64,000 bases of DNA, taken from NCBI RefSeq assembly GCF_044704955.1, contig NC_091979.1, forward strand, positions 319,052,001-319,116,000, read 5' to 3'. Shown one piece after another: positions 218-41,155 of this stretch; within the stretch, counting starts at the first letter, position 1, and each line of letters opens with the position of its first letter. The notes under the pieces are model-generated. The model had not been told where the DNA came from and searched no databases. It saw nothing but the letters and a program-made list of their open reading frames with translations. The DNA comes from Pristiophorus japonicus (Eukaryota). Made by a program: the position numbers and the translations under genes.

Positions 218-316
218 TATCTTGGAAGAGCTGAACACACTTAGTTCTGTTTTTACAGCTGATCAGACAACAGAAGTAAAATTAAACAAGAAGCAGGCCG
301 ATTCATTCCGACCATC

Positions 317-321
317 ATGAG
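317..321 (+). CDS. IFIT: IFIT coding exon 1 (ATG AG, phase-2 splice donor)
   Basis: accatcATGAG|gtaaga: A at -3 and a strong donor. It joins in frame to acceptor tcttacag|T at 21829, giving MSDTERDALKVKLLQLQCHFTW. IFIT genes typically have a first exon carrying only the start codon plus 2 nt. Confidence 0.75.
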
Positions 322-3271: not shown

Positions 3272-6200
3272 AAGAACATAAGAACATAAGAATTAGGAAC
3301 AGGAGAAGGCCATCAAGCCCCTCGAGCCTGCTCCACCATTCAAAAAGATCATGGCTGATCTGGCCGTGGACTCAGCTCCACTTACCCGCCCGCTCCCCGT
3401 AACCCTTAATTACCTTATTGGTTAAAAATCTATCTATCTGTGATTTAAATACATTCAATGAGCTAGCCTCAACTGCTTCCTTGGGCAGAGAATTACACAG
3501 ATTCACAACCCTTTGGGAGAAGAAATTCCTTCTCAACTCGGTTTTAAATTGGCTCCCCCGTATTTTGAGGCTGTGCCCCCTAGTTCTAGTCTCCGGACTA
3601 GTGGAAATAACCTCTCTGCCTCTATCTTGTCTATCCCTTTCATTATTTTAAATGTTTCTATAAGATCACCCCTCATCCATCTGAACTCCAACGAGTAAAG
3701 ACCCAGTCTACTCAATCTATCATCATAAGGTAACCCCCTCACCTCCGGAATCAGCCGAGTGAATCGTCTCTGTACCCCCTCGAAGGCTAGTATATCCTTC
3801 CTTAAGTAAGGTGACCAAAACTGCATGCAGTACTCCAGGTGCGGCCTCACCAATACCCTGTACATTTGCAGCAGGACCTCCCTGCTTTTGTACTCCATCC
3901 CTCTCGCAATGAAGGCCAACATTCCATTCGCCTTCCTGATTACCTGCTGCACCTGCAAACTAACTTTTTGGGATTCATGCACAAGGACCCCCAGGTCCCT
4001 CTGCACCGCAGCATGTTGTAATTCAAATAATATTCCCTTTTCCTGTTTTTTTTTCCCAAGGTGGATGACCTCACATTTTCCGGCATTGTATTCCATCTGC
4101 CAAACCTTAGCCTATTCGCTTAACCTATCCAAATCTCTTTGCAGCCTCTCTGTGTCTTCTACACAACCCGCTTTCCCACTAATCTTTGTGTCATCTGCAA
4201 ATTTTGTTATACTACAACCTGTCCCCTCTTCCAGGTCATCTATGTATATTGTAAACAGTTGTGGTCCCAGCACCGATCCCTGTGGCACACCACTAACCAC
4301 CAATTTCCAACCCGAAAAGGACCCATTTATCCCGATTCTCTGCTTTCTGTTAGCCAGCCAATTCTCGATCCATGCTAATACATTTCCTCTGACTCCGCGT
4401 ACCTTTATCTTCTGCAGTAATCTTTTGTGTGACACCTTATCGAATGCCTTTTGGAAATCTAAATACACCACATCCATCGGTACACCTCTATCCACCATGC
4501 TCGTTATATCCTCAAAGAATTCCATTAAGTTAGTTAAACATGATTTCCCCTTCATGAATCCATGTTGCGTCTGCTTGATTGCACTATTCCTATCTAGATG
4601 TCCCGCTATTTCTTCCTTAATGATAGCTTCAAGCATTTTCCCCACTACAGATGTTAAACTAACCGGCCTACAGTTACCTGCCTTTTGTCTGCCCCCTTTT
4701 TTAAACAGAGGCGTTACATTAGCTGCTTTCCAATCCGCTGGTACCTCCCAGAGTCCAGAGAATTTTGGTCGATTATAACTAATGCATCTGCTATTACTTC
4801 CACCATCTCTTTTAATACCCTGGGATGCATTTCATCAGGACCAGGGGACTTGTCTACCTTGAGTCCCATTAGCCTGTCCAGCACTACCTCCCTAGTGATA
4901 GTGATTGTCTCAAGTTCCTCCCTTCCCACATTCCCGTGACCAGCAATTTTTGGCATGGTTTTTGTGTCTTCCACTGTGAAGACCGAAGCAAAATAATTGT
5001 TTAAGGTCTCAGCCATTTCCACATTTCCCATTATTAAATCCCCCTTCTCATCTTCTAAGGGACCAACATTCACTTTTACGAGGAGATCGTTTATTATTCC
5101 TGTCTCATTATACAGGACCAGTTCTAAGATAGCTTGCTCCCTTGTAGGTTCTGTAACATACTGTTCTAAAAAACAATCCCGTATGCATTCTATGAATTCC
5201 TTCTCAAGGCAACCCCGTGCGATTTGATTTGACCAATCGATATGTAGGTTAAAATCCCCCATGATTACTGCCGTTTCTTTTTCACATGCCTCTATTATTC
5301 CCTTGATTATTGTCCGCCCCACCGTGAAGTTATTATCTGGGGGCCTATAAACTATGCCCACCAGTGACATTTTCCCCTTACTATCTCTAATCTCCACCCA
5401 CAATGATTCAACATTTTGTTCATTAGAGCCAATATCGTTTCTCACAACTGCCCTGATATCATCCTTTATTGACAGAGCTACCCCACCTCCTTTCCCTTCT
5501 TGTCTATCCTTCCGAATAGTCAGATACCCCTGTATGTTTAATTCCCAGTCTTGGCCACCCTGCAACCACATTTCTGTAATGGCCACCAAATCATACCCAT
5601 TTGGAATGATTTGTGGCGTCAACTCATTTACTTTATTTCGAATGCTGCGTGCATTTAGGTAGAGTGTTTTAATACTAGTTTTTAAACCATGATTTTTAGT
5701 TTTGATCCCTCCTGCAGCCCCTTTATATTCATACATATTGTCCCTTCCTATCACCTTGTGGTTTACACTTACCCCAATGCTACTCTTCTCTGTTGCCTCC
5801 TGCCTTTTGCATTCTTCCTTGGGGTCCTGTTCATCTGAGCTCTCACCTATTCTAACTAGCTCAGAGCCCTCTTCTGGGTTCCGAATACTCCTCGCGTTGA
5901 GGCACCGAGCTTTCAGGCTTGCCTTTTTATTACATTTTGACCCTTTGGAATTTTGCTACATTGGCCCTTTTTGTTTTTTGCCTTGGGTTTCTCTGCCCTC
6001 CACTTTTACTCATCTCCTTTCTGTCTTTTGCTTCTGTCTCCATTTTGTTTCCCTCTGTCTCCCTGCATTGGTTCCCATCCCTCTGCCATATTAGTTTAAC
6101 TCCTCCCCAACAGCACGAGCAAACACTCCCCCTAGGACATTGGTTCTGGTCCTGCCCAGGTGCAGACTGTCCGGTTTGTACTGGTCCCACCTCCCCCAGA

Positions 6201-6530
6201 ACCGGTTCCAAAGCCCCAGTAATTTGAATCCCTCCCTGCTGCACCACTGCTCAAGCCACATATTCATCTGCGCTATCCTGCGATTCCTACTCTGACTAGC
6301 ACGTGGCACTGGTCGCAATCCAGAAATTACTACTTTTGAGGTTCTACTTTTTAATTTAGCTCCTAACTCCATAAATTCGTCTCGTAGGACCTCATCCCTT
6401 GTTTTACCTATATCGTTGGCACCAATGTGCACCAGGACAACCGGCTGTTCACCCTCCCTTTTCAGAATGTCCTACACCCGCTCCGAGACATCCTTGACCC
6501 TTGCACCAGGGAAGCAACATACCATCCTGA
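3272..6530 (-). mobile_element. CR1 LINE: ORF1 esterase 3' half, ORF2 APE endonuclease + RT with internal deletion; (CTTATGTT)n tail
   Basis: HIGANDI and DSLH (SGNH esterase); LNARSIRNK, AITEMW, GDFN (APE); [26 protein letters not shown] (RT); tail at 3272-3290. Confidence 0.95.
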
Positions 6531-6694
6531 GCCCAATCGCCCTGCAATCCTCATTGGCAATAAAGCACGATATTGCCAGCCTATTCCCCCATTCCCTCTC
6601 ACTTTTACTCTCATTATTTCCCACATATTCTCCAACAGCAGCTCTGATGGGAAAGGGAAGGGAGTGAAATGCAGGGGAAAGGAGGGGTAACAGG

Positions 6695-7158
6695 TGTAAT
6701 GTAATGTCTTCATGGGTTCTTGGCTTAAGAATTCATAGCAACACTTTGCTGTTAAGAACTAGTTGGTTTATTAACAAACGACACATTACCACAAATACAA
6801 AAGCAAAATACTGCAGATGCTGGAATCTGAAATAGAAAGAGAGAATGCCAGAAATCTCAGCGGGTCAGGCAGCGTGTGTGACAGAGTTCTGACAAAGGGT
6901 CACAGAACCGAAACGTTAACTTTGTTTCTCTCCACAGATGCTGCCTGACTTCCTGAGATTTCCAGCATTTTCTGTTTTTATTACTAAACATTACCAGTTC
7001 ATCCACTAGGCTCAGAACTGCACAACTCATTGTGGATGACCCAGAGCCAACTGACTGGGGTTTTATTGAATCCTGTGAACATCACGTGACTGGCTCAGCC
7101 ACTCACAGTGCAACAGCTCTACAAACCTGTGAGCATACACACAGGTACATACATTACA
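6695..7158 (-). mobile_element. Solo LTR (Gypsy-type) containing a palindromic MITE at ~6795-6985
   Basis: TGTAATG...CATTACA termini; flanks acagg/acaag (5-bp TSD, 1 mismatch); ends in catacattaca like the Gypsy LTRs at 8816 and 14023. Confidence 0.6.
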
Positions 7159-7167
7159 ACAAGGAAT

Positions 7168-8445
7168 AAAGGGTAATGAAGGGGAGAGGTAATGGGAAGG
7201 GTTGAGGGAGCTAAGATGGGAAATCGATTTCAATATAGGAGAGAGCGAAGTGTGAGGTGAAATGTGGTTTGCAAAGTGCCCGGGGTGTTTGTCGAATCCC
7301 CTGAGTATTTCCCAAACCGACCTAACCCTAATTTCAATGTTTAGGGAATTGTGGTCCTGCTCCCCACATTCTCTAACATTTAAAGCTGTAACTTTTGGCA
7401 CAGCTCTGATCATGTTGTTTCCTGACATGCGCAGAGTTATCTCCTGAACAGGACAGTTACAGCCAGGCTGTGGAGACAAACGATGTAAACTGGGGTTTGC
7501 TGACTGCAACTTGCTTTAGTATAAAGATACTCGAACTGTCAACAGTCTCGCTGGAATGCTTTAACCTGCACTGACTGCCTGTAGCCCTGGAAGGTCATTG
7601 AAGGTTGGCATGCAGGTACAGCAGGCGGCTAAGAAAGCAAATGGCATGTTGGCCTTCATAGCGAGGGGATTTGAGTACAGGGGCAGGGAGGTGTTACTAC
7701 AGTTGTACAGGGCCTTGGTGAGGCCACACCTGGAGTATTGTGTACAGTTTTGGTCTCCTAAATTGAGGAAGGACATTCTTGCTATTGAGGGAGTTCAGCG
7801 AAGGTTCACCAGACTGATTCCCGGGATGGCAGCACTGACATATCAAGAAAGACTGGACCAACTGGGCTTGTATACACTGGAGTTCAGAAGAATGAGAGGG
7901 GACCTCATAGAAACGTTTAAAATTCTGACGGGTTTAGACAGGTTCGATGCAGGAAGAATGTTCCCAATGTTGGGGAAGTCCAGAACCAGGGGTCACAGTC
8001 TAAGGATAAGGGGAAAGCCATTTAGAACCGAGATGAGGAGAAACTTCTTCACCCAGAGAGTGGTGAACCTGTGGAATTCTCTACCACAGAAAGTTGTTGA
8101 GGCCAATTCACTAAATATATTCAAAAAGGAGTTAGATGTAGTCCTTACGACTAGGAGGATCAAGGGGTATGGCGAGAAAGCAGGAATGGGGTACTGAAGT
8201 TGCATGTTCAGCCATGAACTCATTGAATGATGGTGCAGGCTCGAAGGGCCGAATGGCCGACTCCTGCACCTATTTTCTATGTTTCTATGTTTCTAACTCT
8301 GAGACACCAAATGCTGGCTTGCGGCCAAAACTGAATTTGCACATTTACTCAACAGGCCGATATTTAATCAGCACGTTGCTCAAACTATACAACATGCAGA
8401 TAGCTGGCAATTCAGATGAACCTGTTTAGGTAAAGGAAGAAATAA
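7168..8445 (+). repeat. Paralogous copy of the IFIT 3' UTR/flank (23255-23824), interrupted by CR1 at 7593-8294
   Basis: Colinear similarity over ~570 bp, e.g. gaatcccctgagtattt, ctggaatgctttaacctgcactgactgcctgtagccctggaa, ccaaaactgaatttgcacatttactcaacag. Confidence 0.85.
7593..8294 (+). mobile_element. 5'-truncated CR1 LINE
   Basis: ORF 7598-8197 (LVRPHLEYCVQFWSP, FFTQRVVNLWNSLP); (CTATGTTT)n tail. Confidence 0.95.
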
Positions 8446-10903
8446 TGAATTGCATTTACATAGTACCTTACACAATCTTAGGACGTCCCAAAGCATTTCA
8501 CACCCAATTAAGTACTTTTGAAGTGTGGTCACCGCTGTAATGAAGGAAATGCGGCAGCAATTTGGTGCACAGCAAGGTCCCACAAATAGCAACATGATAG
8601 TGACCAGAGTGTAGTTTTTGAAATTATATAATGAACTCCGTACTGTGAGCCAGTGACTAGGTGTTACCTGGTCAGTCTTTAATGGCTTCCAGAAGTGAAG
8701 ATACAAAGGTGAAGTTCAGTTCATACACCAGGCCCAGCACCAGTGTACTTATGACCTTAGGACCTCTGACAGTAGTGGCCCCTGGTGGTGGGCAGACCTT
8801 ATGTACATACATTACATCATTCCCCCTGCCAGTTCTTGGCACAAGTCCATATTACAAGCTCAGATGGTCCGGAGCACTTCGCTCCCTAGTTGACCGTCTC
8901 AGTACAATCCCAGTGCTTTCCGAGTCTCTCACGACTTGGAGCTGGGTGTTGACCACAGTGGGTTCTTCTGATGGCTGGACATGAGTTGGTTGGTCGTCTA
9001 AGCTCGAGGTGTCTTCTTCCAACTGTTCCGGTTCGTCAGTGTGTCTTTGCTTGATTTGATCAATGTGTTTCCTGCACATCTGCCCATTCCTGAGCTTAAC
9101 AATAAACACTTGATTACCCTCCTTATCCGTAACATTGTCCAGGAGCCACTTGGGCCCTTGACCATGGTTAAGTACATACACTGGGTCATTTACAGATAGG
9201 TCACGTGACACTGCGGTGTGGTTGTGATACCACTCCTTGCGTTGACGTTGGGTTTCGACATGATCGATAAGGTCAGGATAGACTAGAGAGAGCCTGGTTT
9301 TGAGGCCTCTCTTCATCAATAGTTCTGCAGGTGGGCCCCCGGTGAGTGTGTGTGGCCTTGACCTGTAACTGAGCAGTATGCGTGATAGGCGTGTCTGCAA
9401 GGAACCATGAGTTACATGTTTCAGGCTCTGCTTGATGGTTTGAACTGCCCACTCCATTTGGCCATTGGACGCGGGTTTGAACGAGGCTGACCTCACGTGT
9501 TTTATGCCGTTGCGTTTCATGAACTCTTGAAACTCCAGGCTCGTGAAACACAGTCCGTTGTCGCTGACAACGATGTCTGGCAGACCATGTGTGGCAAACA
9601 TGACTCTCAGGTTCTCAATGGTGGCAGTGGAAGTGCTGGATGACATGATCACACATTCTATCCATTTGGAGTATTCATCCACCATCACAAAAAACATTTT
9701 ACTGAGGAAGGGGCCCGCAAAGTCAATGTGGATTCTAGACCACGGTTTGGATGGCCATGACCACAGACTGAGCGGAGTTTCCTTTGGGGCATTGCTTAAC
9801 TGCATGCAAGAGCTGCACTGATGCATGCATGACTCTGAGTCCAAGTCAGTGCCACGCCACCAAACATGGGACCTGCCGATGACCTTCATCACGACAATAC
9901 CGGGATGCATACTATGTAACTCCCGCACAAATCTCGCCCTGCCTTTCTTGGGCATTACAACACGATTACCCCACAGTAATAGTCAGATTGGATGGACAGC
10001 TCACCTTTGCGATGGCTGCACAGTTTGGTTTCATCACCCATTTCCTTGGGGATGGTCGACCAGTCCCTGTTGAGAACACAATGGTTTACAACTGATAGGG
10101 TCAGATCCTGGCTGGTCTCAGTCTTGTTGAGCAGTGACAGCCGACCCTTCACTCTCAAAGGCATCCATGACCATGAGTAGCTCTGCGGGCATTGGCGTTT
10201 CCATCTCCGGTGTGGGCAACAGTAACTGGCTCAATGCATCAGCGCAGTTGTCGGTGCCTGGTCTATGACGAATGACATAATCATCGACAGATAATGTCAG
10301 CGCCCACCTCTGGATGTGGGACGACGCGTTGGTATTGATACCTTTATGTTCTGAGAACAACGATATAAGCGGCTTGTGATTGGTTTCCAGCTCGAAGTGA
10401 AGCCCAAATAGGTACTGGTGCATTTTTTTTACCCCATAAACACATGGTAAAGCATCTTTCTCTATCATGCCGTAAGCTTTTTCCGCCTTGGACAGGCTTC
10501 GAGACGCGTATGCAACTGGTTGTAGCTTGCCTGACTCGTTGGCTTGCTGGAGTACGCAGCCGACCCCATAGGACAATGCATCACAGGTCGAAACTAGACG
10601 CATGCATGGGTCATACAGTACCAGTAGCTTGTGGGAACACAACAGATTTTCTAGCCTTCTCAAAGGCACTGTCTTGAAGTTCATCCCACACCCAGTCATC
10701 TTCTTTCCTGAGCAGCTTCTGCAAAGGCTCTAATACTGTGCTCAATTTGGGTAAGAAGTTACCGAAGTAGTTGAGAAGATGCAGGAACAAACACAGCTCC
10801 ATCACATTCTGTGGCCTGGGCGCATTTTGATGGCCTCTGTTTTCGCGTCTGTAGGCCTGATTCCGTCTGTGGCAATCTTTCGTCCAAGGAATTCGACCTC
10901 TGG

Positions 10904-11686
10904 TGGCAAAAACACGAAGACAGAATATTATCTGAATGGTGGCAGATTAGGAAAAGGGGAGGTGCAACGAGACCTGGGTGTCATGGTACATAAGTTATTG
11001 AAAGTTCGCATGCAGGTACAGCAGACGGTGAAGAAGGCAAATGGTACGTTGGCCTTCATAGCTCGGGGATTTAAGTACAGGAGCAGGGAGGTCTTACTGC
11101 AGTTGTACAGGGCCTTAGTGAGGCCTCCCCTGGAATATTGTGTTCAGTTTTGGTCTACTAATCTGAGGAAGGACTTTCTTGCTATTGAGGGAGTGCAGCG
11201 AAGGTTCACCAGACTGATTCTGGGGATGGCAGGACTGACATATGAGGACAGACTGGATCAACTGGGCCTGTATTCACTGGAGTTTAGAAGGATGAGAGGG
11301 GATCTCATAGAAACATATAAAATTCTGACGCGACTGGACAGGTTAGATGCAGGAGGAATGTTCCTGATGTTGGGGAAGTCCAGAACCAAGGGACATAGTC
11401 TAAGGATAAGGGGTAAGCCATTTAGGACTGAGATGAGGAGAAACTTCTTCACTCAGAGAGTTGTTAACCTGTGGAATTCCCAACTGCAGAGAGTTGTTGA
11501 TGCCAGTTATATTCAAGAGGGAATTAGATGTAGCCCTTACAGCTAAAGGGATCAAGGGGTATGGAGAGAAAACAGGAAAGGGGTACTGAGGTGAATGATC
11601 AGCCATGATCTTATTGAATGGTGATGCAGGCTCGAAGGGCCGAATGGCCTACTCCTGCACCTATTTTCTAAGTTTCTATGTTTCTA
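10904..11686 (+). mobile_element. CR1 3' fragment inserted into the Gypsy RT
   Basis: Splits the Gypsy motif KCVF|..EVEFLG; CR1 ORF2 C-terminus and CTATGTTT tail. Confidence 0.92.
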
Positions 11687-12964
11687 TGAAAACGCACTTT
11701 GAACATTTCAGCCTGTGTCTCACTTTGTCCAGACAATGCAAAACCTCTTCCAGATTGTGCAGGTGCTCAGCAGTGTCACAACCTGTGACTAGGATGTTGT
11801 CTTGGAATACCACGCTCCTGGGGATGGATTTCAATAGGCTCTCCATGTTTCTCTGAAATATGGCTGCCACTGAATGAATGCCAAAAGAGCAACTGTTGTA
11901 AATAAACAGTCCTTTGTGTATGTTGATGCACGTAAATTTCTTTAATGATTCAACCAGTTCCTGTGTTATGTAGGCCGACGTTCGATCCAATTTGGTGAAC
12001 GATTTTCCCCGGCTAGCGTTGCAAACAGGTCATCAGCTTTCGGTAGCAGGTACTGATCTTGTTTCAAAACTGGGTTGATCGTGACCTTGTTGGCTCCACA
12101 AATCCTGACCGTGCCGTCGCTCTTTAACACCAGCACAATGCGACTGGCCCATTCATTAAATTCGACCGGTGAAATGACCCCCTTGCATTGTAGTCCAATT
12201 CGAGCTCGACCTTTTCTCTCATCGTGTGCGGGACTGCCCTGGCTTTGTGATGGATGGGCCTTGTATCTGGGCCTAGGTGAATCTGCATCTTGGCTCCTTG
12301 AAGCTGCCAATTCCCGGTTCAAACAGTGAGGGAAATTTTCTCAGCACTTGAGCACACAAATCATCATCCACTGATGACAAAGCTTTGATATCGTACCATT
12401 TCCATTTTATTTTATCGAGCCAACTCCTGCCGGATAACAATGGGCCGTTGCCCGGGATAACCCATAACGGTAGATTGTGAACCGTTTCCTCGTACGACAC
12501 TCTTATTGCTGCACTACCGATCACTAGTGTGAGCTCTTTGGTGTAGGTACGCAACTTCGTATTTATCGGACTCAGCTTGGGTCTCTCTGCCTTGGTCTCC
12601 CACAGCTTTTCGAAAGTCCTCTGGCTCATTATCGATTGACTCGCACCCGTGTCTAATTCCATGGATACCGGCACGCCGTTTAATGTTACCTCCATCATTA
12701 TCGGTTGGCTCTTTGTTCGGAACGCACGTACGTTATACACTTCCTCCTCGGAGCTCTCAAATACCTTGAGCTGCATCGCCAGATCCACGCTGAATTGATC
12801 ATCATCCACGTGGTGCGTCACAGCTCGCTTGCTCCACTGCGGACACATCCGCTGAAGATGACCCGTCTTCACACACCCTCTGCATACATACTGCCTGAAA
12901 CGGCACTGATGGGGGCGATGAATGCCCCCGCAACGCCAACACGTTGAGCTCGGATTGGCGCCCG

Positions 12965-13180
12965 ATAGCGAACTTTGAGTGGCTCCCGTTCTCGCATACA
13001 CAGTCGAGCAGGCCCTCGATGGCGAATTTTGAGTGGCTTCCGTTCTCGCATACACAGTCGAGCAGGCCCTCGATGGTGAGCTTTGAGCGGCTCCCGGTCT
13101 CGCAGACACAGTCGAGTAGGCCCTCCATGGTGAGCTTTGAGCGGCTCCTGGTCTTGCAGACACAGTCGAGTAGGCCCTGC
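12965..13180 (-). repeat. 54-bp in-frame tandem repeat (4 copies) in Gypsy gag
   Basis: RAYSTVSARPGAAQSSPW-type 18-aa unit, repeated 4 times before the CWRCGG knuckle. Confidence 0.9.
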
Positions 13181-14108
13181 CATGTTCAGCTCTGCCGGCC
13201 GTCGATACAATTTTGTACACAGTACTTGCCGTGGAGTTCCTGTTTTGTCACGATATCTGCTTCGTGCTTTTCTGTGTGGACAGGCAAGCCTGAGCGATGG
13301 CGATGACCTTGCTGAGGTCCGGTGTCTCCGCAGCCAGCAGCTTATTTAAGATCATCTCGCGGTTGACCCTGATCATGAAAAAGTAACATAGCATGTCTTC
13401 CAACGCAGACCCAAATTTACAAGGCCTTGCAAGACATCTCAGGTTGGCAACAAATGCCGCTGTATCCTGGCCTTCTGGACGAATGTGCGTATAGAAGCGA
13501 TATCTGGATATGAGGATTCCTTCCGTGGGTTTAAGATGTTCCCGAACTAGAGCACACAGTTCTTTATAAACCTTTTCTGTGGGAAGAATGGATGAGAGCA
13601 GATTCTCGTAGGGCCACAGACGGTGAGAAGAACTGCCCTGCGCTTCTCTGCATCCCTGTCTTTGTTTAGATCGTTTGCCACGAAATACTGGTCAAGACGA
13701 TCCGTGAAATCGCCCCAATCCTCTCCCACTGTTGGAATCTCTCGAGAATTCCAACAGTATTCGATCGTGCTGTGCTCGCCATACTTTTGTTTGGGTTTGT
13801 ATTTGCCTCGTCGCCAGTTGTGGTGTATGAAATGACACAATGAACTCCATACTGTGAGCCAGTGACTAGGTGTAACCTGATCAGTCTTTAATGGCTTCCA
13901 GAAGTGAAGATACAAAGATGAAGTTCAGGTTATATACCAGACCCAGCACGAGTGTACCTTTGACCCTCGGACCAGATGACAGTGCCCCCTGGTGGTGGGC
14001 AGACCTTATGTGCATACATTACACAGATAATCTGTTTTCTTGCGATGTTAACTGAGGGATAAATATTGGTCAGGAGATCGGCGTGAGCTCCTCTGCTCTT
14101 CTTCGAAA

Positions 14109-15003: not shown

Positions 15004-15153
15004 TGCACACCTCTGACAGTACAGCACTGAAGTATCAGCTTAGATTTGGTGCTCAAGTCTCAGGAGTGGGACTTAAACCGACAGCTATCTGACTCAGAAA
15101 CGACAGAGCTAGCACTGAGTCATGGCTGACACAGGCACTAGTTCAATGGAATG

Positions 15154-18100
15154 AGTTAGCACGAATGTTTCCCAGAAAGAATCACTCGACACTCTGGGTC
15201 GGTTCCAACATCAAAACAGCCTTTATTACGCTGGCGGGGAGAAAGCCTCTGGGTTACACCAGGCACTACTCTCCGCTGAACAAAGAAATTCATCGATACT
15301 TATACATTTAACAACACTTGGTTACAATTACTCAACCCATCTTGGCTGGACACAATCCAATCACAACGATTATAGATTCTCTTGGGCCAAAGGAATTGAC
15401 CCCGAAGCATCAAGGGGCTACATGTCTTTGCTAAGAATTTCTCATGGTCTCGTGATGTGATCAGGCCCACCCTTATCTCTACTGTCCTTGGGTTCTGCCT
15501 GAGCTTATCTTTCTTATCTTAATCCAATTACAGAGTTCCATTCTGTCCCATTGGGCAGTGACATCTGGTCTGGGCTTCGGAATGTGCTGATTTGGACTTA
15601 ATTGTGTGCGCCTGTGTGAGAAACACAGTTGTATCAGTTACCTAGGAATGTGGTCAAATCAGCCAGTTGAGTTCCCCTGATGCTTTGCAAAATCTCTGGC
15701 AGCCATTTTATATCTAACAGCCATTTTATACACACGTACATACATATGCCCTTCAGGTGCCTTTGCCTTTGGAAGCGCCCGACAACAATTGCCCCCTTTC
15801 GGTAAGGGAATAGTCCTAGTCCCCTTTAACCGACAACATTGGTTATAATTTATTACCCCATTTATATCTTTGCGTACCACCCGGTACTCCCTGCCTTAAC
15901 ATGCTGGCCAGTCACGTGGTTTCAGGAGTTCCGGTTGCTTATATCAAATTGATATTGTTCAAATTCTCCTGTCCCTCTGCTGGACAGATCTCCCTATGTA
16001 CTTGAACCCTGGTCTGATTCTCCTACGTCGTGCATAATGCCTGCAGGTCCGACAGACCATAACACCCCATGTCAGTGCTTTGACCAGCTGTATCCCTACC
16101 AGTATGTGTGATATTATTCAAATCCACGGGTGGATGTTTACGTTCATCCCCCAGTCCCAGACCCTCCTCCGCCAACTCTGGTTTTGTAACTCTTGGTCAG
16201 TATTCTTCTCCAGTGTCTTTGTCTGTAGTTGGTGGTAGAGTCTGACAGACTGGCCTACTCTGAGTCTTAGCTCCCTTAGTACCTCAGCTAAATTTGGGAT
16301 AGGGGCCTGCTCTGGCTCATCATAATCCTGCAGGTGATCGTGGATTTGATTGGTGGAGTTAATGATTTCGGTGCCCTGGCGTCTAACCTGGATAATGCGG
16401 GCTTGTCCTATTGTGACGGGTCGTAGGGGTGTGAAGCAAAAGTTTGGTTGCGGGATCTGGCATTGTAAGTCATTGTACTGGTATGAACATACCGTGGCAG
16501 AGACACAGTATCTCCCTTTGCCCCTGTAACCTGCTCTGGCAAAATGAGTGGGGGCAGGTACTATTTCTAATACACATCCATTGGTTCATTTAAATCCACA
16601 CTCGTCTCGTTCTCCTTGTCCCACCGGGTGAGGGCACACCGTAATGTCAACCGTCTGCTTGCATTCCGTCAGGAAGATCCCATAGAGTGTGTTGTCTCTG
16701 CAGATAGCAGAGGTTGCGGTCAGATAGTAATGGAGGGAGGTGTTTTCCCGTATGATCCCGATATTCTCCAGTTGATAAAGGGGAAACGGTCATGAGTCTT
16801 GTGTGACTATTCCCACTCCGGCAGCTTTACCCATTGGGCAGTTTGGGATCACTGGGAATACTCTGGTTAGTCCCTTCAGAGTGCAATTATCCAGTGTCCC
16901 CTTCAGTTTGGCCAACTGAGCCAGATGTGGGCTGTCAATCCAGTCTGGCACTTCCCCCCTTTGGATCTGATCAAGGTTGTGTTGTATCTGTTAGCTTGAT
17001 CTTCCTGATTCTGCTCTGCCCATTCTAATAGTCCTTTCATCACCCCTTTAAATTGTTCCACCTTTTCGTTTGGCCCTTGTATATCCAGTGAGTTTACGAT
17101 GGAGGTTCCGATGTTAAAACCGGTAGCAGCATCATTAACTATTTCTCTCTTAGTCCTATGAAGTGGCTCCTGTCCTCGGAATCTACTGGCACCCATGGCA
17201 TCAACAGCCTGCTGCATTACAACTTTACTCAGCACACCATACATATTTCTTGCCTGTTCTGTACAATATTCCGCCATTCGTATGCCTGAGATATTGATCA
17301 GAACAGGCACAATTTCATACTTAACATTATGCATTAAAATAAGTTCTGTCCTTGCTCCAGTCCTTGGCTGCTGGGATGCATATTCCGTCAGTTAAATTAA
17401 ACAAAGCCCCATTGTTCATGTAGTGGTGTCTTTCCTGCGTGTGCTGTATCTCTCGTAGTCCGTCTGTATTACCCAGTGCTTGCGTGGGCCTTAAGGTTCC
17501 CAGTATCATGAGTCTCCAGAGTTGAAGTAGCCACTGCAGTCCCATCTGGGTGAGCGTTATATCTGCAAATTTTAAACAGATAGCCTGGTCGTCACCAGGT
17601 GTTAGGTTATGGTCTACTCATCTTTTATCCATGCATGTAGAGGTCACTCGACTCCGCACTCGTTATCCCAGTCTGGTTTACTGTTAGGTTGGGTTTGTGG
17701 TCTACACTTACCCACCGTGGGGTACATTGGCCCTATCGCCATAGGTGCTGGTGCTATGGCTGTGCACTGCACTATCCGTCTGGACCCATTTAAAAAAAAA
17801 AATCTCTTCCAGCTTATTTTAGCTTTAACTCCTGAATTTGTTTTGTTTGAGTATCTATTTATTTTATCTGTATCAGGTGAGTATTATTACATAGGCTAGT
17901 TCTGTTTTATTTTTTATTCTGACTATCCCACCATTTCCTCTGTCTGTCAGGTGAGTCTTCTTTATTTTATTAGGAAATCCAAATTAATGAGGTCCAGTGT
18001 AAAACAGTTGTCAATGGAAAGGGTTAACTCCTTTACAGGTTTGTAAGAAGGCCTGATGTCATTACGTAATCATCCAAAAACATTTTTTTCAAGTCTTTGT

Positions 18101-21100
18101 GCCTTCAATACTTGCTGAGAAATTAGCAATCTGTTAAAACAGAAGAAATAATTAGTAAAGCCGTCATAATAAAAATCTTCTCATCGGGAAAGACGGCATT
18201 TTAGATTAAACTCCAATTTTTTCTAAACTCCTAATTCAAATACTTGCCAAAGATTTTTTTTAATTGATTTAAAACGAGACCACACATTTTTAATAGCCAT
18301 TTTGTTTACTGAAATCCAATTTTCACACAAGCTGTATACATTCCAACATTTTGGTTTTTTTTATGGTCCCGTTCACTGGGCAAATCTTGTGTTTTATTTC
18401 TCTCTCGGCACAAAATCTAAACTTCCGTGCCAGTTCCATTTTCCATAAGAATTTTAAAATTCAGTAAGATTTTCTAATTCCCAGCTTTTTCTTTCTGTGC
18501 TGAGTTCACATAGCTTAGCTCTTTTCTCCTTGTTATTTTCAAAACCCTCCTGCTTGTTTAGACTGTTCAGGACTTTTCTTGATAAACAACGTCCATTTTG
18601 GAAATCTTTTCAAACTGCAGTGAAACGTTCTCGTAATTTAAAATCATTATCAATGGAGAATGTCTTTTACCTCTTCAAATTCTTTTTTTTCCTTTTCCCA
18701 ATTAAATCAATATCTGTTTCACAGCCAATATCAACTAGTATTTAATAAGTTACATCTTTTTCCATTTAAATCTCCTTTCTTCAAATTAGGTTTTGTATTT
18801 TACACGGAGGGCTTGTGTCTCCGTAAATTTGTTAATTTAAAATCATAAGACAATCGAAAACACTTTTTTCCAAATTTGTTCAATTTGTTTGCTTTTAAGG
18901 TTGCGTCTTTATCTTTTTCGTCCTTTCCATTATCTCAAATGTTCAAGTTTCAAGGTCCTTTGCTCTAAACTGCTAAAGCCTGTTGTTTTAACATTTTAAT
19001 TTTCCCAAAGTCCCTTTTACACTTTCGCAGATAGCTCACCACTTGCCCAGGAGTTTGACCTGATCCCTGAGGTATTTCTAGATTGTTCCCAAACCCTTTA
19101 GTTTTATTTCTTTTTTTAAAAGAGATCAGATTTAACTTTTTATTTTAAATGTATCGCATTTTGTTGTGCCTTTTCTTAACCAGTGGTACTTGAAACCTTC
19201 ACAACAAAATTAACTCTTCACTGTTCCCATCCTAATTTCTGCTCCCCTTTTGTAGAATTTGTATTTATTGTTGAATTACAAAATGTCAAATATGGTAATA
19301 CTGTTTTTTTTAATATGTGCCGAACTTCTGTTTTAGAAGCTGATCAAAAACTTTAATCTTTTGCTCTGTAACTTCAATTTTGTGATACTGTATCTCATAA
19401 ATTACATCTTTTTTAAGCTTCAGCTTCTGACACAGTATGTGTACTTTTATTAAAAAGGCTTCCAAACCCAAGATTTTCCAATACAACCAAAATGTTTATC
19501 AAGGAGAATCACCTGAAATATCTCAAAATCCCAATTCAAATATTGTACTGCCAATCTTTTATTTAAAAATCTCTTTACTGAGCTAGAAGCTTTCGTGTCA
19601 AGGTTTTACACAAAGGAAAATGGGGGCGTACTTCCCCAGCCCACAGCCTGGAGAGACCCACACAGGCTTTAAAAAAAAGGAATTACAGCTTCCCTTTTCC
19701 GTTCTTTATCTCATTCCTAGACTAAATTTATTGTCTTTCAACCCAATGTAATCAATGATTGCATGTTTTCTTTTGACAAGTAAGTGAGCGTGTCAAATCT
19801 TTTTGTAAACCAATGGGACCATGTATTTTTTATCTTTTGCTCAACAACCCTATCCTTTGTGCATTTCCTAGCTCCATAACATATCATCTGAATAAATCCA
19901 CACCTGCGTTTCTAACTTAAAATGTAATTCAATTCTAGGTTCACACTTTCTTAAAACTTCCCACATACTGGACAACACTGCAAAGGGTGAAAAAAAACTT
20001 TCACTCTGTCTGAAAAAGTGGGTGGAGCTAAAACAAACAGACAGCTCGACCACTTTCCTAAACAGGCTTTCAGACACATGAAACATTCATTAATTCCCAC
20101 CTCAAATATTTCGCAGTCAAAAATAACACAAACACTCTCATTCAAAGACAGACATTCACAAAAGCCTCTCTTTATTCAACAAAGCTTATTGTTTGGCCAG
20201 TTCTATTTTTGGATCCATACATCATTTAAGATAGTCACTATCAGGTTTTTTTATGGCATTATGTAATTACGCAAGTTATAATTAATACATGATTGATTTA
20301 CTTTCTCTGTTAATTTTACGTGGGCTCAACGAATCAGAACCCAGGCCTTTTCAATTACTTTCTTTTGTTTCTCCGTCAGGTGGCGGGTAAGGGACCTTTC
20401 TGGCCCCCACTCGAGTTTTGTTGGTTTACTGACCATGTCTGGGTAGGACTAGAACTGTTAGGAATCTACTCTGAGGTCCGCTTTCAGCTAACGCGACTTG
20501 TAGTAGGCCGTCTCTTGGCTTACTGCCGGGTCACAAGTCAGTGATAATTTTTTACAGCAGGCTTATAATACAATCCTTAAATACTTTAAGCAATTCCTGA
20601 CAGCGCTCTACGTCTCCTTAACGAAATACCTTGCACCATTTTGCCTATTGGTCCGATCCTGTTCACAGACTTGATTTTCGTTGGTCGCTGTGCACCACCT
20701 GGTCCCCGGGGTATATTTCAAATTACACTACTGGGCCCAGGAGGCCCAGGAGATGTCGCTCGGTATCACGATCCCACGGTCTAAGTGTGTTCCCTATGCC
20801 TATTTAATCCTGGCCGTCACGTGGGAACAAGTCCTCTTAATTCGGGCTCAGGCTAGGCGTTTGAGGTATTAGACCGTCTCCTCGTGTCGATCAACCGATG
20901 TCCACCTTCAGCACCCTTTCTTATTTTTGTTTTAATCTATACTCACCCGGTTCTTCCAAGCGTGTCCAGCGACTTCCGAATCCTGTTTGTGACACCACTG
21001 TTAGCGCAAATATTTCCCAGGAAGAATCACTCGACACTCTGGGTCGGTTCCAACATCAAAACAGCCTTTATTACGCTGGCAGGGAGAAAGCCTCTGGGTT

Positions 21101-21382
21101 ACAGCAGGCACTGCTCTCTGCTGAACAAAGACATTCATCGATACTTATACGTTTTACAATACTAGGTTACAATTACTCAACCCATCTTGGCTGGACACAA
21201 TCCAATCACAACGATTATAGATTACATGACAGGTTTCTTTTAGGCCAATGGAATTGACCCCTAAGCATCAAGGGGCTACATGTTTTTGCTAAGAATTTCT
21301 CATGGTCTCGTGATGTGGTCAGGCACACACGTACATACATCTGCCCTGCAGGTGCCTTTGCCTTTGGAAGCGCCCGACAACA
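15154..21382 (-). mobile_element. Env-bearing, pol-less endogenous retrovirus (lokiretrovirus-like)
   Basis: 3' LTR 15154-15787 and 5' LTR 20999-21382; TSD GAATG at 15149-15153 and 21383-21387; PBS-like TGGTGTCACAAACAGGAT (20997-20980); PPT GAAAGGGGG before the 3' LTR; env at 15959-17545. Confidence 0.9.
15959..17545 (-). pseudogene. env: env: class I fusion glycoprotein with paramyxovirus-F-like layout, disrupted
   Basis: Signal peptide MGLQWLLQLWRLMILG; furin site RTKR followed by fusion peptide EIVNDAATGFNIGTSIVNSLDI; heptad region; Cys-rich segment (ECKQTVDITVC..ECGF..GCVLE..GKGRYCV..NFCF); Trp-rich stretch, TM segment and basic tail; 2 frameshifts and 3 TGA stops. Confidence 0.85.
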
Positions 21383-21389
21383 GAATGAG

Positions 21390-21828: not shown

Positions 21829-23257
21829 TGACACTGAAAGGGACGCCCTGAAAGTGAAATTACTTCAGCTACAATGTCACTTCACGTGGAATCTGCAGAT
21901 GGAAAATGTTGAGTGGGATGATTTGCAGGAACGACTAAACTATATAATAGAGTCTGATATTGTGAAATATCAAGCTATGACTTACAATCTACTTGCTTTT
22001 GTAAACTGTACGAGAGGCAACTGTGAGAAGTCGGTCAATAATTTATGGAAAGCTGAAGAAATTCTGAGGAAAAATCACAAATTTGAAATAGAAAAATGGA
22101 GCATCATCACCTATGGAAACTCTGCCTGGGTATATTATCATGTGGGAGAACTGGCAGAGGCCCAGTCCTACCTCGACGAGCTGGAGAGGATCTGTCAACA
22201 ATTTACTGATGGCTCTCAGTATACAGCACTGATACCTGAAGTATACGGGGAGAAGGGTTGGTCACTGTTGAAATGTGGCAGGAAATATTATGAAGAGGCA
22301 AATGAATGTATTGAGAAGGCTCTGGAGGGGGATCCTGATGACATTGAATGGAACGCAGCTTATGCAACTGTTGTGTTTCGACTTAAAGAAACCTTTGAAG
22401 ACCCACAGCGTCCTGAACACTGCAAGGTAGTGAAGCAGTTACGCCGCGCATTAGCACTGAACCCAAATGACTCGTTTGTCAAGATCATGTTGGCTCTGAG
22501 ACTACAGGATTTCAATCAACCAGACGAATGTTACAGATTACTTGAAGAAGTGCTGCTGGAGTCTCCTGATGATCCATATATAACTCAATATGCAGCCAAA
22601 GCTTTAAGAAAACAAGGATCTGTTGAATATTCCTTACAGCTATTGAAAAAGGCACTGAAGGTTAAATCCTCTTCTGCACTTCTTCACCATGAGATCGGCT
22701 TATGTTACAAAGCTCAGCTGAAACCTCACCGGAAATACTTTGCTCGTGCAGACAGCAGAAAATTGATTGAACTTTGCAAGTACCATTTCCAAAAAGCGTA
22801 TGAACAGAAACCCTCGCTTACTTTTGCAATACTTCATTTGGCGGAACTCCACGCAATATGTGGAGAATATTTCAAAGCCGATGATATCTACACCAACCTG
22901 CTTAGAAATAAAGATTACAGCCCTTTGAATAAACAATTAATACATTGGGACTATGGATTGTACCAGCTGTATAAGAAAGGATCCCAGCTGAATGCCATTC
23001 ATCATTTCAAGGAATGCTTAAAACTCAAAGTTAACACCAACAAGAATGAGGAATGCCGCGCAAAATTGAAACGTATTGCTGAAGATCGAATGAGTAAAGA
23101 TTCAAGAGACAGTGTAGCTTTTGGTATATTGGGACTAATACACCAGATTGATGGCAAGAAATCAGAAGCCATTGAATACTTTGAGAATGCCCTGGAGTGT
23201 GATCGTGACAATGAAGAATTTCAAAGTGCTCTATGTAAGCTGCGTCAGGTTACATAG
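21829..23257 (+). CDS. IFIT: Interferon-induced protein with tetratricopeptide repeats (IFIT5/IFIT1-like), exon 2; full protein 477 aa
   Basis: Uninterrupted ORF with IFIT hallmarks CHFTW, YNLLAF, TYGNSAWVYYH, EKGWSLLK, LHHEIGLCY, AIHHF and C-terminal SALCKLR; acceptor tttcttacag at 21828. Confidence 0.96.
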
Positions 23258-30620: not shown

Positions 30621-33518
30621 TGGTGTATCTGAAAAGCATGCACTCCCATGTTCCGCCACCAGGGCGCTCATCCCCTGAAGTTCCAAGGGATCCCAGCATC
30701 CCTTGGGAGCACTGTATATAAGCCAGCCCCTAAGGCCTGTTCCTCACTCTGGAGTGTCTTATTAAAGACTGAGGTCACTGTTACTTTAACCTCCATGTGT
30801 GCAGTCTCATCTGTGTTAGGAACACAATAACTGGCGACGAGAATACGAATCCAACACAAAGATGCAGCAAACTGTGGGCATCCTGGAGAAGTTCTCGGAG
30901 GGTGAGGACTGGGAAGCCTATGTCGAACGGCTAGACCAGTACTTTGTAGCCAACGAGCTGAACGAGAAGGAAGTGCTGCAAAAAGGAGAGCGGTCCTCCT
31001 CACGGTCTGCGGGGCACTGACCTACAGCCTCATGAAGAATCTTCTGGCTCTGGTGAAACCCACAGATAAGTCGTATGAGGAGCTGTGTACACTGGTTCAG
31101 GAGCACCTTAACCCAACGGAGAGCGTGCTGATGGCGAGGTATCGGTTCCACACGTGCCAGCGATCTGAAGGTCAGGAAGTGGCGAGCTACGTCGCCGAGC
31201 TAAGGCGACTTGCAGGACAATGTGAGTTTGATGGCTACCTGGAACAAATGCTCAGAGAATTTTTTGTACTGGGCATTGGACACGAGACCATCCTACGAAA
31301 ACTTTTGACTGTAGAGAACTGACCCTCAGTAAGGCCATTGCGATAGCACAGGTGTTTATGTCCACCAGTGATAACACCAAACAAATCTCTCAGCACACAA
31401 GTGCAAGCAATGTTCCTAAATTAACTGGAACTGTGTTTGGTAGCAGAAATATACAGGGCAGAACCCAAGAGTCTGCAACTGCCAGCAGGCCTCAGGTGAC
31501 CCAGATGACTCAGAGTCCCCAACAACGGATGAATGCAAGGCAATTCACACCTTGTTGGCGTTGTGGAGGCTTCCATTTAGCCTATTCATGCCGCTTCAAA
31601 GGGTATGTTTGCAAGAGCTGTGGAACAATGGGGCACCTCCAACGAGCTTGCAGATGAGCTGCAAGCTCTGCAGAACATGCTAACCACTACGTGGCAGAGG
31701 AAGATCAGTCCATGGTGGATCAAAGCAAATTCGAGCCTCAGAGAGAGGAGGCAGATGCTGAAGTACATGGGGTGCACACATTTTTGACAAAATGTCCACC
31801 TATAATGCGAAACATAAAATTGAATGGCTTACCCATAGCCATACAACTGGACACTGGCGCTAACCAAACCATCATGAGTAAAAAGATGTGTGAGAGACTG
31901 TGGTGCAACAAGGCATTCAGGCCAGCCCTGAGCCCCATCCACATGAAACTGAGAACGTACACCAAAGAGCTTATCACTGTCCTGGGCAGCACCATGTTCA
32001 AGGTTACCTACAAGGGCACGGTGCATGAACTGCCACTCTGGATTGTCCCGGGCGATGGCCCCACACTGCTTGGAAGAAGCTGGCTGGGCAAAATTCGCTG
32101 GAACTGGGTTGACATCCGAGCGCTATCACATGTCGATGAGGCCTCATGTACCCAGGTTCTTAACAAATTTCCTTCCCTTTTTGAGCCAGGCATTGGAAAC
32201 TTTTCCGGGGTGAAGGTGTGGATCCACTTGGTCCCAGAGGCACGACCCATTCACCACAAAGCGCGAACGGTACCTCACATGATGAGGGAGAGAGTGGAAA
32301 TTGAGCTGGACAGGCTGCAACGCGAGGCCATCATCTCCCCAGTGGAATTCAGCGAGTGGGCCAGCCCGATTGTTCCAGTACTCAAAAGTGATGGCACGGT
32401 CAGGATTTGCGACGATTATAAAGTAACTATTAATCGTTTCTCGCTACAGGACCAATACCTGCTACGTAAGGGGCAGACGACCTATTTGAGACGATGGCAG
32501 GAGGCAAGACATTCACTAAGCTATACCTGACTTCGGCCTACATGACGCAGGAGCTGGAGGAGTCTTCGAAGGGCCTCACCTGCATCAACACGCACAAGGG
32601 ACTGTTCATCTCCAACAGATGCCCGTTTGGAATTCTGTCGGCTGCAGCGATCTTCCAGAGAAACATGGAGAGCCTTCTCAAGTTGGTACCACGCATGGTA
32701 GTTTTTCAGGACGACATATTGGTCACGGGTCAGGACACCGTCGAGCACCTACAAAACCTGGAGCAGGTCCTCCAGCAACTGGATCGCGTAGGGCTGCGGC
32801 TGAAGAGGTCGAAATGCGTCTTCATGGCAACAGAAGTGGAGTTTTTGGGGAGAAAGATTGCATCGGATGGCATTCGGCCCACAGACGCCAAGACAAAGGC
32901 TATCAGGAATACGCCCAGGCCACAGAACATCACAGAGCTGCGGTCGTTCCTGGGACTCCTCAACTATTTTTGGTAACTTCCTATCGGGGTTAAGCACCCT
33001 TTTAGAGCCCCCACGCATGTGTTATTGCGTAAAGGTGAGAACTGGGTATGGGGAAAAAACCAAGTAATTGCTTTTGAGAAAGCCAGAAACATTTTATGCT
33101 CCAAAAAGCTGCTTGTATTGTATAACCCGTGTAAAAGACTTTAGCTAGCATGTGACACATCATCGTACAGAGTCGGGTGTGTATGACAACAAGCTAACGT
33201 TGCGGGGAAGTTGCAACCTGTCGGCTATGCTTCCAGGAGCTTGTCTAAGGTCGAGAGAGCCATCAGCATGATTGAGAAAGAGGCATTAGTGCATGTATTC
33301 GTTGTAAAGAAAATGCATCAGTAGCTGTTTGGCCTCAAATTTTAGCTGGAAACCGAACACAAGCTCCTCATATCCCTGTTTGCTGAAAACAAGGGGATAA
33401 ATACTAATGCCTCAGCCCGCATACAAAGGTGGGCACTCACGCTATCAGCGTATAACTATACCATCCGCCACAGTCCAGGCAGCGAGAACTGTGCAGTTGC
33501 TCTCAGTCGGCTACCATC
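30621..33518 (+). mobile_element. 3'-truncated Gypsy element (5' LTR, gag, PR, RT, RNase H)
   Basis: LTR with TATA and ATTAAA ending ~30829; PBS TGGCGACGAG at 30832; CWRCGG/CKSCG knuckles, LDTGA, VFQDDILV; cut off by CR1 before integrase. Confidence 0.92.
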
Positions 33519-35690: not shown

Positions 35691-36258
35691 TCCTCTCTAA
35701 TCTGGATCCTCTGGGGAACAACAGATACTCTCTAATGTGGCAGAAAACCCAGAATGACAATATTATTCGGCAAAAAACTGTAATAATGTTAATTGTGATA
35801 AATAAAATTACGTAGAAGCACCTGGATAAATCAGCAGATGGATAATGGTAATACATTGCTCAATTTCTTATTGGTTCTTTTAAAGCTGCTTTCTGCTGAT
35901 AAACTAACAATAGTCCTTTGATAACCTTTCTGATGGAATGGGGGAAACTGAGCTACACATCCAGAAAAAGCTGGTCAAAATTATTTCCAGGTTCAAGCAA
36001 CTTTGGGCGATAGAACTGATCATCAAAATCAGAAGAGGAACGGAACGGTGTTCTATACTCTGTCACTCAGCAATGACCCCTAGTGCTGATAATCCTCAGG
36101 AAATACTGAAGCTGACACAATGTGCACCAGCCCCAGCATACTCGTGTGTTATCTCTCGATCTAATCCAGGGCTGTCCGCGGAACACATTAATCCCACCCA
36201 CATTGCGCCTTTCTTCTGGTTGCTGAGTTTGAAGCAGTGTCCGGGAGGATTGCGACTC

Positions 36259-39200: not shown

Positions 39201-41155
39201 CTCTGTGCCCTCACCAAACCCCCTCCCTCGATCTGTGCCCTCACCAAACCCCCTCCCTCGCTCTGTGCCCTCACCAAACCCCCTCCCCCGCTCTGTGCCC
39301 TCACCAAACCCCCTCCCCCGCTCTGTGCCCTCACCAAACCCCCTCCCTCGCTCTGTGCCCTCACCAAACCCCCTCCCTCGCTCTGTGCCCTCACCAAACT
39401 CCCTCCCTCGCTCTGTGCCCTCACCAAACCCCCTCCCTCGCTCTGTGCCCTCAGCAAACCCCCTCCCTCGCTCTGTGCCCTCACCAAACCCCCTCCCTCA
39501 CTCTGTGCCCTCACCAAACTCCCTCCCTCGCTCTGTGCCCTCAGCAAACCCCCTCCCTCACTCTGTGCCCTCACCAAACTCCCTCCCTCGCTCTGTGCCC
39601 TCAGCAAACCCCCTCCCTCGCTCTGTGCCGTCATCAAACTCCCTCCCTCGCTCTGTGCCCTCACCAAACTCCCTCCCTCGCTCTGTGCCCTCATCAAACC
39701 CCCTCCCTCGCTCCGTGCTCTCACCAAACCCCCTCCCTCACTCCGTGCCCTCATCAAACTCCGTCCCTCACTCCGTGCCCTCATCAAAACCCCTCCCTCG
39801 CTCTGTGCCCTCACCAAACCCCCTCCCTCGATCTGTGCCCTCACCAAACCCCCTCCCTCGCTCCGTGCTCTCACCAAACCCCCTCCCTCACTCTGTGCCC
39901 TCACCAAACTCCCTCCCTCGATCTGTGCCCTCACCAAACCCCCTCCCTCGATCTGTGCCCTCACCAAACCCCCTCCCTCGATCTGTGCCCTCACCAAACC
40001 CCCTCCCTCGATCTGTGCCCTCACCAAACCCCCTCCCTCGATCTGTGCCCTCACCAAACCCCCTCCCTCGATCTGTGCCCTCACCAAACCCCCTCCCTCG
40101 CTCTGTGCCCTCACCAAACCCCCTCCCTCGCTCTGTGCCCTCACCAAACCCCCTCCCTCGCTCTGTGCCCTCACCAAACCCCCTCCCTCGCTCTGTGCCC
40201 TCACCAAACTCCCTCCCTCGCTCTGTGCCCTCACCAAACCCCCTCCCTCGCTCTGTGCCCTCAGCAAACCCCCTCCCTCGCTCTGTGCCCTCACCAAACC
40301 CCCTCCCTCACTCTGTGCCCTCACCAAACTCCCTCCCTCGCTCTGTGCCCTCAGCAAACCCCCTCCCTCACTCTGTGCCCTCACCAAACTCCCTCCCTCG
40401 CTCTGTGCCCTCAGCAAACCCCCTCCCTCGCTCTGTGCCGTCATCAAACTCCCTCCCTCGCTCTGTGCCCTCACCAAACTCCCTCCCTCGCTCTGTGCCC
40501 TCATCAAACCCCCTCCCTCGCTCCGTGCTCTCACCAAACCCCCTCCCTCACTCCGTGCCCTCATCAAACTCCGTCCCTCACTCCGTGCCCTCATCAAAAC
40601 CCCTCCCTCGCTCTGTGCCCTCACCAAACCCCCATCTCGCTCGGTGCTCTAACCAAACCCCCTCCCTCGCTCCGTGCCCTCACCAAACCCCCTCCCTCGC
40701 TCTGTGCCCTCACCAAACCCCCTCCCTCACTCCGTGCCCTCACAAAACCCCCTCCCTCGCACCGTGCCCTCACCAAACCCCCTCCCTCGCTCGGTGCTCT
40801 CACCAAACCCCCTCCCTCACTCCGTGCCCTCACCAAACCCCCTCCCTCACTCTGTGCCCTCACCAAACCCCCTCCCTCGCTCTGTGCCCTCACAAAACCC
40901 CCTCCCTCGCACCGTGCCCTCACCAAACCCCCTCCCTCGCTCTGTGCCCTCACCAAACCCTCTCCCCCGCTCCGTGCCCTCACCAAACCCCCTCCCTCGT
41001 TCTGTGCCCTCACCAAACCCCCTCCCTCGCTCCATGCCCTGACCAAACCCCCCTCCCCCGCTCCATGCCCTAACCAACGCCCCCCCCGCCCCCTGCTCTG
41101 TACCCTCACCAAACCTCACCCCCCTACCCCAGCTGTGGGCCCTCACCAAACCTCC
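36259..41155. repeat. 30-bp minisatellite (~160 copies) with higher-order structure
   Basis: Unit cgctctgtgccctcaccaaaccccctccct; variant cassettes recur at 36801, 38001, 39621 and 40431. Confidence 0.98.

Follow-up and report, generated by a model that had tools for sequence, protein, structure and literature searches.

A pol-less endogenous retrovirus family retaining a predicted F-like envelope in Pristiophorus japonicus, and its probable mobilisation by a co-resident retrovirus

The window analysed here is a 64,000-nucleotide stretch of the Pristiophorus japonicus genome (GCF_044704955.1, contig NC_091979.1, positions 319,052,001 to 319,116,000 of the forward strand). On its plus strand lies a gene with the 3' end of exon 1, including the ATG, at 289..321 (GT donor at 322) and an IFIT-like coding exon 2 with TPR repeats at 21830..23257. 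We take this gene to be an IFIT on the family features of a two-exon ATG-AG/T layout and TPR content, and not on a named database match. In run X7, the kind of which is unrecorded, a contig splices window positions 289-321 straight onto the exon at 21830; the provirus described below therefore lies antisense within a 21.5-kb first intron. This bears out the original prediction of an insertion inside the intron of an antiviral IFIT gene. The antisense insertion does not stop IFIT splicing, and the spliced contig could derive from an IFIT paralogue. Family-like contigs from runs X7-X9 (one study, kind unrecorded) also cover the element; these contigs carry neither strand nor level and are therefore unusable as expression evidence. 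No match to the pattern used for an ISRE-like motif was found near IFIT exon 1. There are four copies of the IFIT locus (G000 C3, 316.5-319.1 Mb; L031-L033), all with this insertion at one target site and between matching flanks; one of them is inverted and 99.96% identical, and the insertion is older than these local IFIT duplications.

Several other features were observed in the window. A second IFIT-like sequence, broken and with 43-62% identity, occupies 41655-42388, and a 5-kb array of 24-bp units, open in several frames, occupies about 36200-41170. Many fragments that we take, by motif, to be of CR1-type LINE and Gypsy-type elements are found at 3800-13250, 31650-32530 and 43600-53450, several of them within the IFIT intron.

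The provirus is 6,229 bp long, lies on the minus strand and has exact boundaries at 15154-21382. It is flanked by a GAATG target-site duplication (15149..15153 on the left and 21383..21387 on the right, without strand). The 3' LTR (15154..15787, minus strand) is 634 bp long with an altered terminal base, and the 5' LTR (20999..21382, minus strand) is 384 bp long, has TG...CA ends and is without 263 bp found in the 3' LTR. A polypurine tract (15788..15801, minus strand), which recurs in other family copies, adjoins the 3' LTR. The primer-binding site (20980..20997, minus strand) is identical at 16 of 18 bases to the 3' end, with CCA added, of the genomic tRNA-Ser(CGA). Two LTRs, the target-site duplication, the primer-binding site and the polypurine tract had all been read around a 6.2-kb element, and all were confirmed. 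Two primer-site variants occur across the family copies, one matching tRNA-Ser(CGA) and the other presumably resembling another serine tRNA. A search of the provirus for tRNA genes and Rfam families found none inside the element. The LTR pair is identical in 349 of 371 aligned columns (94%; the 89% given by other alignments is an artefact around the 263-bp gap), with a K2P distance of 0.062. With a mammalian rate this distance gives an insertion age of about 14 My, and with the shark rate that PMC4422223 assumes it gives about 140 My; the age of the provirus is thus poorly fixed.

The internal region, also on the minus strand, begins with a leader (20449..20979) that has about 78-82% identity with the helper leader described below and that, we infer, likely holds the packaging signal. 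A gag 5' stub of roughly 50 codons (20293..20448) aligns, with an internal gap, to the first 81 aa of the helper gag frame. In place of the rest of gag-pol there is an AT-rich stuffer (17650..20290; 34% GC, 37% A), followed by a broken env of F-type layout (15959..17545) comprising about 530 codons in several frames with in-frame stops. The env of this copy is dead. It had been described as the only recognisable gene of the element; the env remnant is indeed present, but the gag stub at 20448-20293 removes the word 'only'. A furin-type motif, RTKR (17146..17157, minus strand), is followed by a putative fusion peptide and then by a heptad region, a Cys-rich beta region, a second heptad region, a Trp-rich stretch and a TM segment. 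This order agrees with the predicted layout of the glycoprotein, whereas the early position assigned to the furin site holds only in part: RTKR looks earlier in this copy because 356 bp (junction near 17330) and 157 bp (junction near 16992) of env, on the same strand, have been lost.

The provirus is one of many. An env DNA search of the genome, in which 40 of 3,025 candidates were scored, led to 37 fetched stretches, most of which measure 6.2-6.5 kb from LTR to LTR when nested insertions are ignored. The layout of the family is LTR, leader, gag stub, AT-rich stuffer, env and LTR. Since this search was biased towards the window copy, two further samples were drawn, one picked by the stuffer and the other by an env motif. 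All 20 stuffer-selected loci retain env remains (293-654 of 714 aa), and long family pol is absent from all 20. The second sample, 40 loci drawn from the first 100 of 195 env-motif matches, contained 27 pol-less loci with the stuffer, six helper-type loci, one with partial pol and six others; two of the 27 also show partial pol matches in their stretch. A primer-binding-site pattern that covers one of the two types only was found at 445 sites. The insertions have distinct flanks, except at duplicated loci, and mostly a 5-bp duplication (both ends located, for 30 locus rows and the window). Many independent pol-less insertions thus share one common internal structure, which is the mark of a non-autonomous endogenous retrovirus (ERV). 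The predicted family of repeated, pol-less, env-keeping copies is upheld by the 27 of 40 sampled env loci that share this layout, and the same count rules out that all other copies carry intact gag-pol and that the window copy is a one-off deletion. In the literature searched, from which subscription journals were largely absent, no title describes an env-only ERV family and no paper concerns a pol-less ERV family of P. japonicus. One stuffer-bearing locus, L096, has an env that matches at the protein but not the DNA level, and it probably acquired a more distant env.

A gag-pol helper with the same LTR and primer-binding site, for which a search had been suggested, was found in the same genome with related LTR, leader and env. 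At L066, RT and integrase lie upstream of the same env. A pol search of the genome (40 scored out of 5,486 candidates) and the resulting loci define a helper of about 9.2 kb consisting of LTR, gag with a CCHC zinc knuckle, PR, RT, tether, RNase H, IN, a small TM ORF, env and LTR. It has in common with the pol-less family the LTR (72-81% identical), the leader (78-83%), the first ~85 gag codons, the tRNA-Ser type of primer-binding site and env. In pol-less copies, homology to the helper returns for the last 190 bp or so of the pol region, a piece that the window copy is without. The matching LTR and primer-binding site identify the helper as an autonomous partner, from which we infer mobilisation in trans. 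All 30 pol-selected loci carry their own env, covering 500-682 of 714 aa; therefore, there is no env-less partner among them. The small ORF that separates integrase from env in L066 (3278-3577) and other helpers is about 100 codons long and encodes a hydrophobic segment. Further derivatives of the helper that carry deletions occur at L068, L111 and L129, of which L068 retains gag and integrase pieces and has the 157-bp env deletion.

Relatives of the envelope (Env) were found in Mustelus, Heterodontus, Chiloscyllium, Pristiophorus, Scyliorhinus and three frogs. At full length, Env measures about 700 aa; in an intact shark relative of 714 aa, the furin site falls at residue 249. Its predicted model has a pLDDT of 62 and a pTM of 0.39, with residues 1-162 mostly unresolved. 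Against the PDB, every match listed for this model is a paramyxo- or pneumovirus F protein (best E 1.8e-9), with TM-scores of only 0.15-0.3. Among viral models, it matches the F proteins of lispi-, baculo- and paramyxoviruses and walleye epsilonretrovirus Env, and feline foamy Env weakly; Atlas features likewise point to Baculo_F and Fusion_gly clusters. At the sequence level, Env gave no match to the Pfam F0 family (PF00523), the best Pfam result being Baculo_F at E 0.001 for one fragment, and a PDB sequence search returned nothing significant, the best hit being a coronavirus spike heptad/TM region at E 0.017. Gamma-type motifs (CX6CC and, by the pattern used, the immunosuppressive domain in TM) are absent from P0001, P0091 and P0113, and no profile match to TLV_coat was found in Env; P0114 has a single CX6CC, which lies within the membrane anchor. 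These results speak against a gamma-type env. Because the model matches are F proteins and gamma-type motifs are absent, the predicted Env core is likely F-like (class Ib), with a Cys-rich domain of some 130 aa in front of it, part of which is lost in the window copy. The features of class Ib, namely an F core from the beta-domains of both subunits, a furin site, an N-terminal fusion peptide and two heptads, are present in the predicted model, so that the F2/F1-type layout proposed for the fusogen is supported by the modelled fold of the intact relative. The F-like model is also matched, at E 1e-9 to 1e-13, by the predicted Envs of the walleye viruses WEHV-1 and WDSV and by the glycoprotein of a fish filovirus. 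Full-length F-like relatives in frogs are represented by the P0114 cluster, P0113 and P0127, and a Mantella cluster (16 members, most of 677 aa) suggests a young family.

The original prediction called the provirus lokiretrovirus-like. Lokiretroviruses are defined by an RT that is sister to all retroviruses and an RNase H that groups with foamy viruses (PMC7947760). The helper RNase H scores E 5e-33 with a gammaretroviral RNase H versus 0.006 with the foamy one, it is 41% identical to MLV and 23% to SFV, and the RNase H tree agrees. The RT tree has 50 rows rooted on Gypsy and caulimovirus rows and holds no named loki, SnRV or ERV-L reference; a pair of sequences, P0262/P0055, is loki-like by tree position and architecture (foamy-leaning RNase H), not by name. 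Helper RT falls inside a 44-row retrovirus clade (98/93) that excludes this pair, and in the best tree it lies outside the gamma/epsilon clade. Forcing the helper to group with the loki-like pair is narrowly rejected by the AU test (p=0.045), whereas grouping with foamy viruses or class I is not rejected (p 0.18 and 0.19). That the system is nonetheless a true lokiretrovirus family, which would extend the group to cartilaginous fishes, would find its case in this borderline rejection, in the helper integrase (43% to P0262 vs 36% to MLV by BLASTP) and in the combination of an F-like Env bearing an RXKR site with a dual RNase H (tether plus RH), as in the lokiretroviruses of PMC7947760. However, a dual RNase H is not diagnostic because it is common to all retroviruses, and neither is an F-like Env, since foamy Env has that fold (PMC11468914) and walleye epsilonretrovirus Env models match. 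The integrase tree, which is poorly rooted and has no CGIN1 reference, separates the helper from P0262, the helper Gag has a CCHC knuckle where the Gag of the loki element Bik-1 has a glycine-rich patch (10.1101/2024.03.25.586437), and no smc-like ORF was noticed in the helper. With an MLV-type RNase H and an RT nested within retroviruses, loki membership is unsupported; we regard it as highly improbable, and the predicted lokiretrovirus-like identity was not substantiated. Judging from its sequence, the helper probably represents a non-loki, orthoretrovirus-like lineage, and it is possibly related to SnRV/Huo.

The stuffer is common to the pol-less copies, has no match in helpers and is about 2-2.6 kb long across the family. 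It gave no Pfam match in six frames and no Rfam match. It might descend from a gag-like or accessory gene of some other element that decayed very long ago, in which case the family would have begun as a recombinant and not by simple loss of gag-pol. In favour are the richness in A of its viral strand, a sense frame of the window stuffer with 46 stops vs about 74 expected, and two copies out of ten whose best frames contain fewer stops than any of 100 shuffles; yet the other eight are within the shuffle range, the longest open stretches (up to 94 aa) are similar to those of shuffles, and the sequence was already non-coding while the family spread. The ten copies thus lack a consistent coding signal relative to shuffles, and we consider such an origin rather doubtful. 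It bears on origin only and is compatible with the passenger role that we propose for env below.

In env, deletions of 356, 241, 157 and 106 bp recur with identical breakpoints in independent insertions. Exact-match counts in the genome, which include some duplicates, place the 356-bp junction at at least 93 sites and the 157-bp junction at at least 32 (reversed-pattern controls, 0), versus 195 sites for the undeleted junction. Neither 356 nor 157 is a multiple of three; with a frameshifted env copied to so many sites, elements with a dead env therefore spread well. The breakpoints of the common deletions show short microhomology, and splicing as their origin was rejected for want of GT-AG ends. 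Among the pol-less copies of the 40-locus sample, about half are without a common large env deletion and so may have inserted with an open env; the longest open env in the pol-less copies scanned is 542 codons, versus about 700 at full length. Selection tests, which leave out L063 (spacer) and the duplicated loci L031-33, L043, L062, L064, L091 and L099, gave pairwise env dN/dS of 0.14 among helpers and 0.27-0.38 among pol-less groups. Env singletons are near neutral (0.7-1.0) and variants held by three or more pol-less copies have pN/pS of 0.10-0.20; this constraint is also present in frameshifted copies. Within tight clades, dN/dS of the 3' part of env is 0.64 where no deletion is common to the clade, and frameshifted clades range over 0.51-0.69. 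The tree of the stuffer is almost star-like, whereas the 5' and 3' env trees disagree and interleave with helpers, and placing all pol-less env in one clade is rejected (AU p about 1e-108; 20 pol-less and 11 helper rows). Repeated template switching with co-packaged helper RNA is the simplest reading, and we tentatively attribute the low pN/pS of variants common to several copies to imported helper segments.

These results largely speak against the envelope-donor satellite of the original prediction, for which one would look for an intact, selected env in a pol-less lineage and an env-less partner; neither was found among the copies sampled. A donor role could account for env being kept in all 20 stuffer-selected copies, for the low pN/pS of widely held variants and for clade A1, which is undeleted and has an env dN (0.045) below its stuffer distance (0.067). 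Most copies also keep the pol 3' end, where a putative env splice acceptor would sit. Against this, every one of the 30 pol-bearing copies has its own env, frameshifted env was amplified, no open env in the scanned pol-less copies exceeds 542 codons, and the comparison of dN/dS among copies, which had been proposed as a check, revealed no extra constraint in undeleted over dead-env clades, the constraint being traced to helper recombination. A family maintained because it provided Env in trans, at least in clades without the common deletions, is therefore unlikely, although a subset of undeleted clades such as A1 might have had such a role. A broader version would have a bipartite-like shark system, in which a pol-less satellite (~4:1 over the helper) kept its F-type env, repeatedly regained a working env by recombination with the helper and, where its clades are undeleted, acted as a source of Env in trans, with a helper from an undescribed non-loki, non-foamy lineage of sharks and frogs that has an F-like Env. 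It strikes us as equally unlikely; if true, it would suggest that the ancestral envelope of retroviruses was a class Ib fusogen.

Overall, the window element is a dead copy of an abundant pol-less ERV family that was probably mobilised in trans by a gag-pol-env retrovirus of the same genome; env most likely travelled as a passenger. The cis signals that the founder would have kept are the LTR, the primer-binding site, the leader with the beginning of gag, the polypurine tract and, usually, ~190 bp from the 3' end of pol. Transcription would start from the 5' LTR, the RNA would be packaged through the leader and gag stub, tRNA-Ser would prime reverse transcription, and helper enzymes would carry out reverse transcription and integration. 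Co-packaging with helper RNA would allow template switching in the common env, which is proposed to produce both the mosaic env and the apparent purifying selection. Env may have persisted because it contains cis signals, because RNA length matters or because recombination refilled it. Weighing against a passenger env are the low pN/pS, the A1 dN below the stuffer distance, the roughly half of the sampled pol-less copies without a common deletion and the 195 undeleted vs 32 157-bp junctions.

Non-autonomous ERVs that are amplified in trans include VL30 and MaLR. They keep LTR, primer-binding site, leader and polypurine tract, depend on a helper and outnumber it, as the shark family does; unlike them, it keeps a near-complete env region, repeatedly exchanged with the helper, and shows no env loss. 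The mechanism of amplification by complementation in trans is described in PMC10435555. Zebrafish BHIKHARI (Bik-1/Bik-2) is likewise a non-autonomous, trans-amplified fish ERV that kept a single viral gene, but Bik has an intact gag without pol or env, whereas the shark family has a mostly broken env and a gag stub (10.1101/2024.03.25.586437). Lokiretroviruses share LTR-gag-pol-env, dual RNase H and an Env with an RXKR site and F-like similarity; the helper departs from them in its MLV-type RNase H, an RT that is not sister to all retroviruses and an Env without a PF00523 match, and the main text of PMC7947760 names no sharks among loki hosts. Foamy Env (class Ib) has the same paramyxo/pneumovirus F core, but its receptor-binding domain is inserted between the subunits, whereas the extra shark domain is N-terminal to the F2-like strand and helix (PMC11468914); helper RNase H and Gag are not foamy-type. 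The SnRV clade and clade Huo (class III) are, like the helper, aquatic retroviruses that are neither gamma, epsilon nor foamy and are present in cartilaginous fishes, and most cartilaginous-fish ERV RT is reported as clade III (PMC6001957, PMC12193657, PMC4422223 and PMC11089739). The helper position outside the gamma/epsilon clade, in trees without an SnRV reference, fits this group. An F-like Env in the SnRV clade was not reported in the literature searched, which largely left subscription journals uncovered.

What is new here is a probably trans-mobilised non-autonomous ERV that keeps env rather than gag, and a helper that has a predicted F-like Env and probably belongs to neither the loki nor the foamy viruses. 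An abundant ERV in which gag-pol was lost and env was kept is the reverse of the usual env loss. Since the F-like Env belongs to a retrovirus whose RNase H is MLV-type and whose Gag has a zinc knuckle, has relatives in several sharks and frogs and is matched by walleye Env models, class Ib envelopes may be spread over early retroviral lineages and not be a peculiarity of loki or foamy viruses, which bears on the four env-origin scenarios in PMC7947760. Further, the frameshifted clades are a built-in neutral control, demonstrating that low ERV dN/dS can arise from helper recombination and not from function. Env fragments of this lineage also appear to be fused into annotated shark gene models (P0095, P0106 and P0124; Niban-like, fbxo15 and cadherin-like), likely as annotation artefacts or through exonisation.
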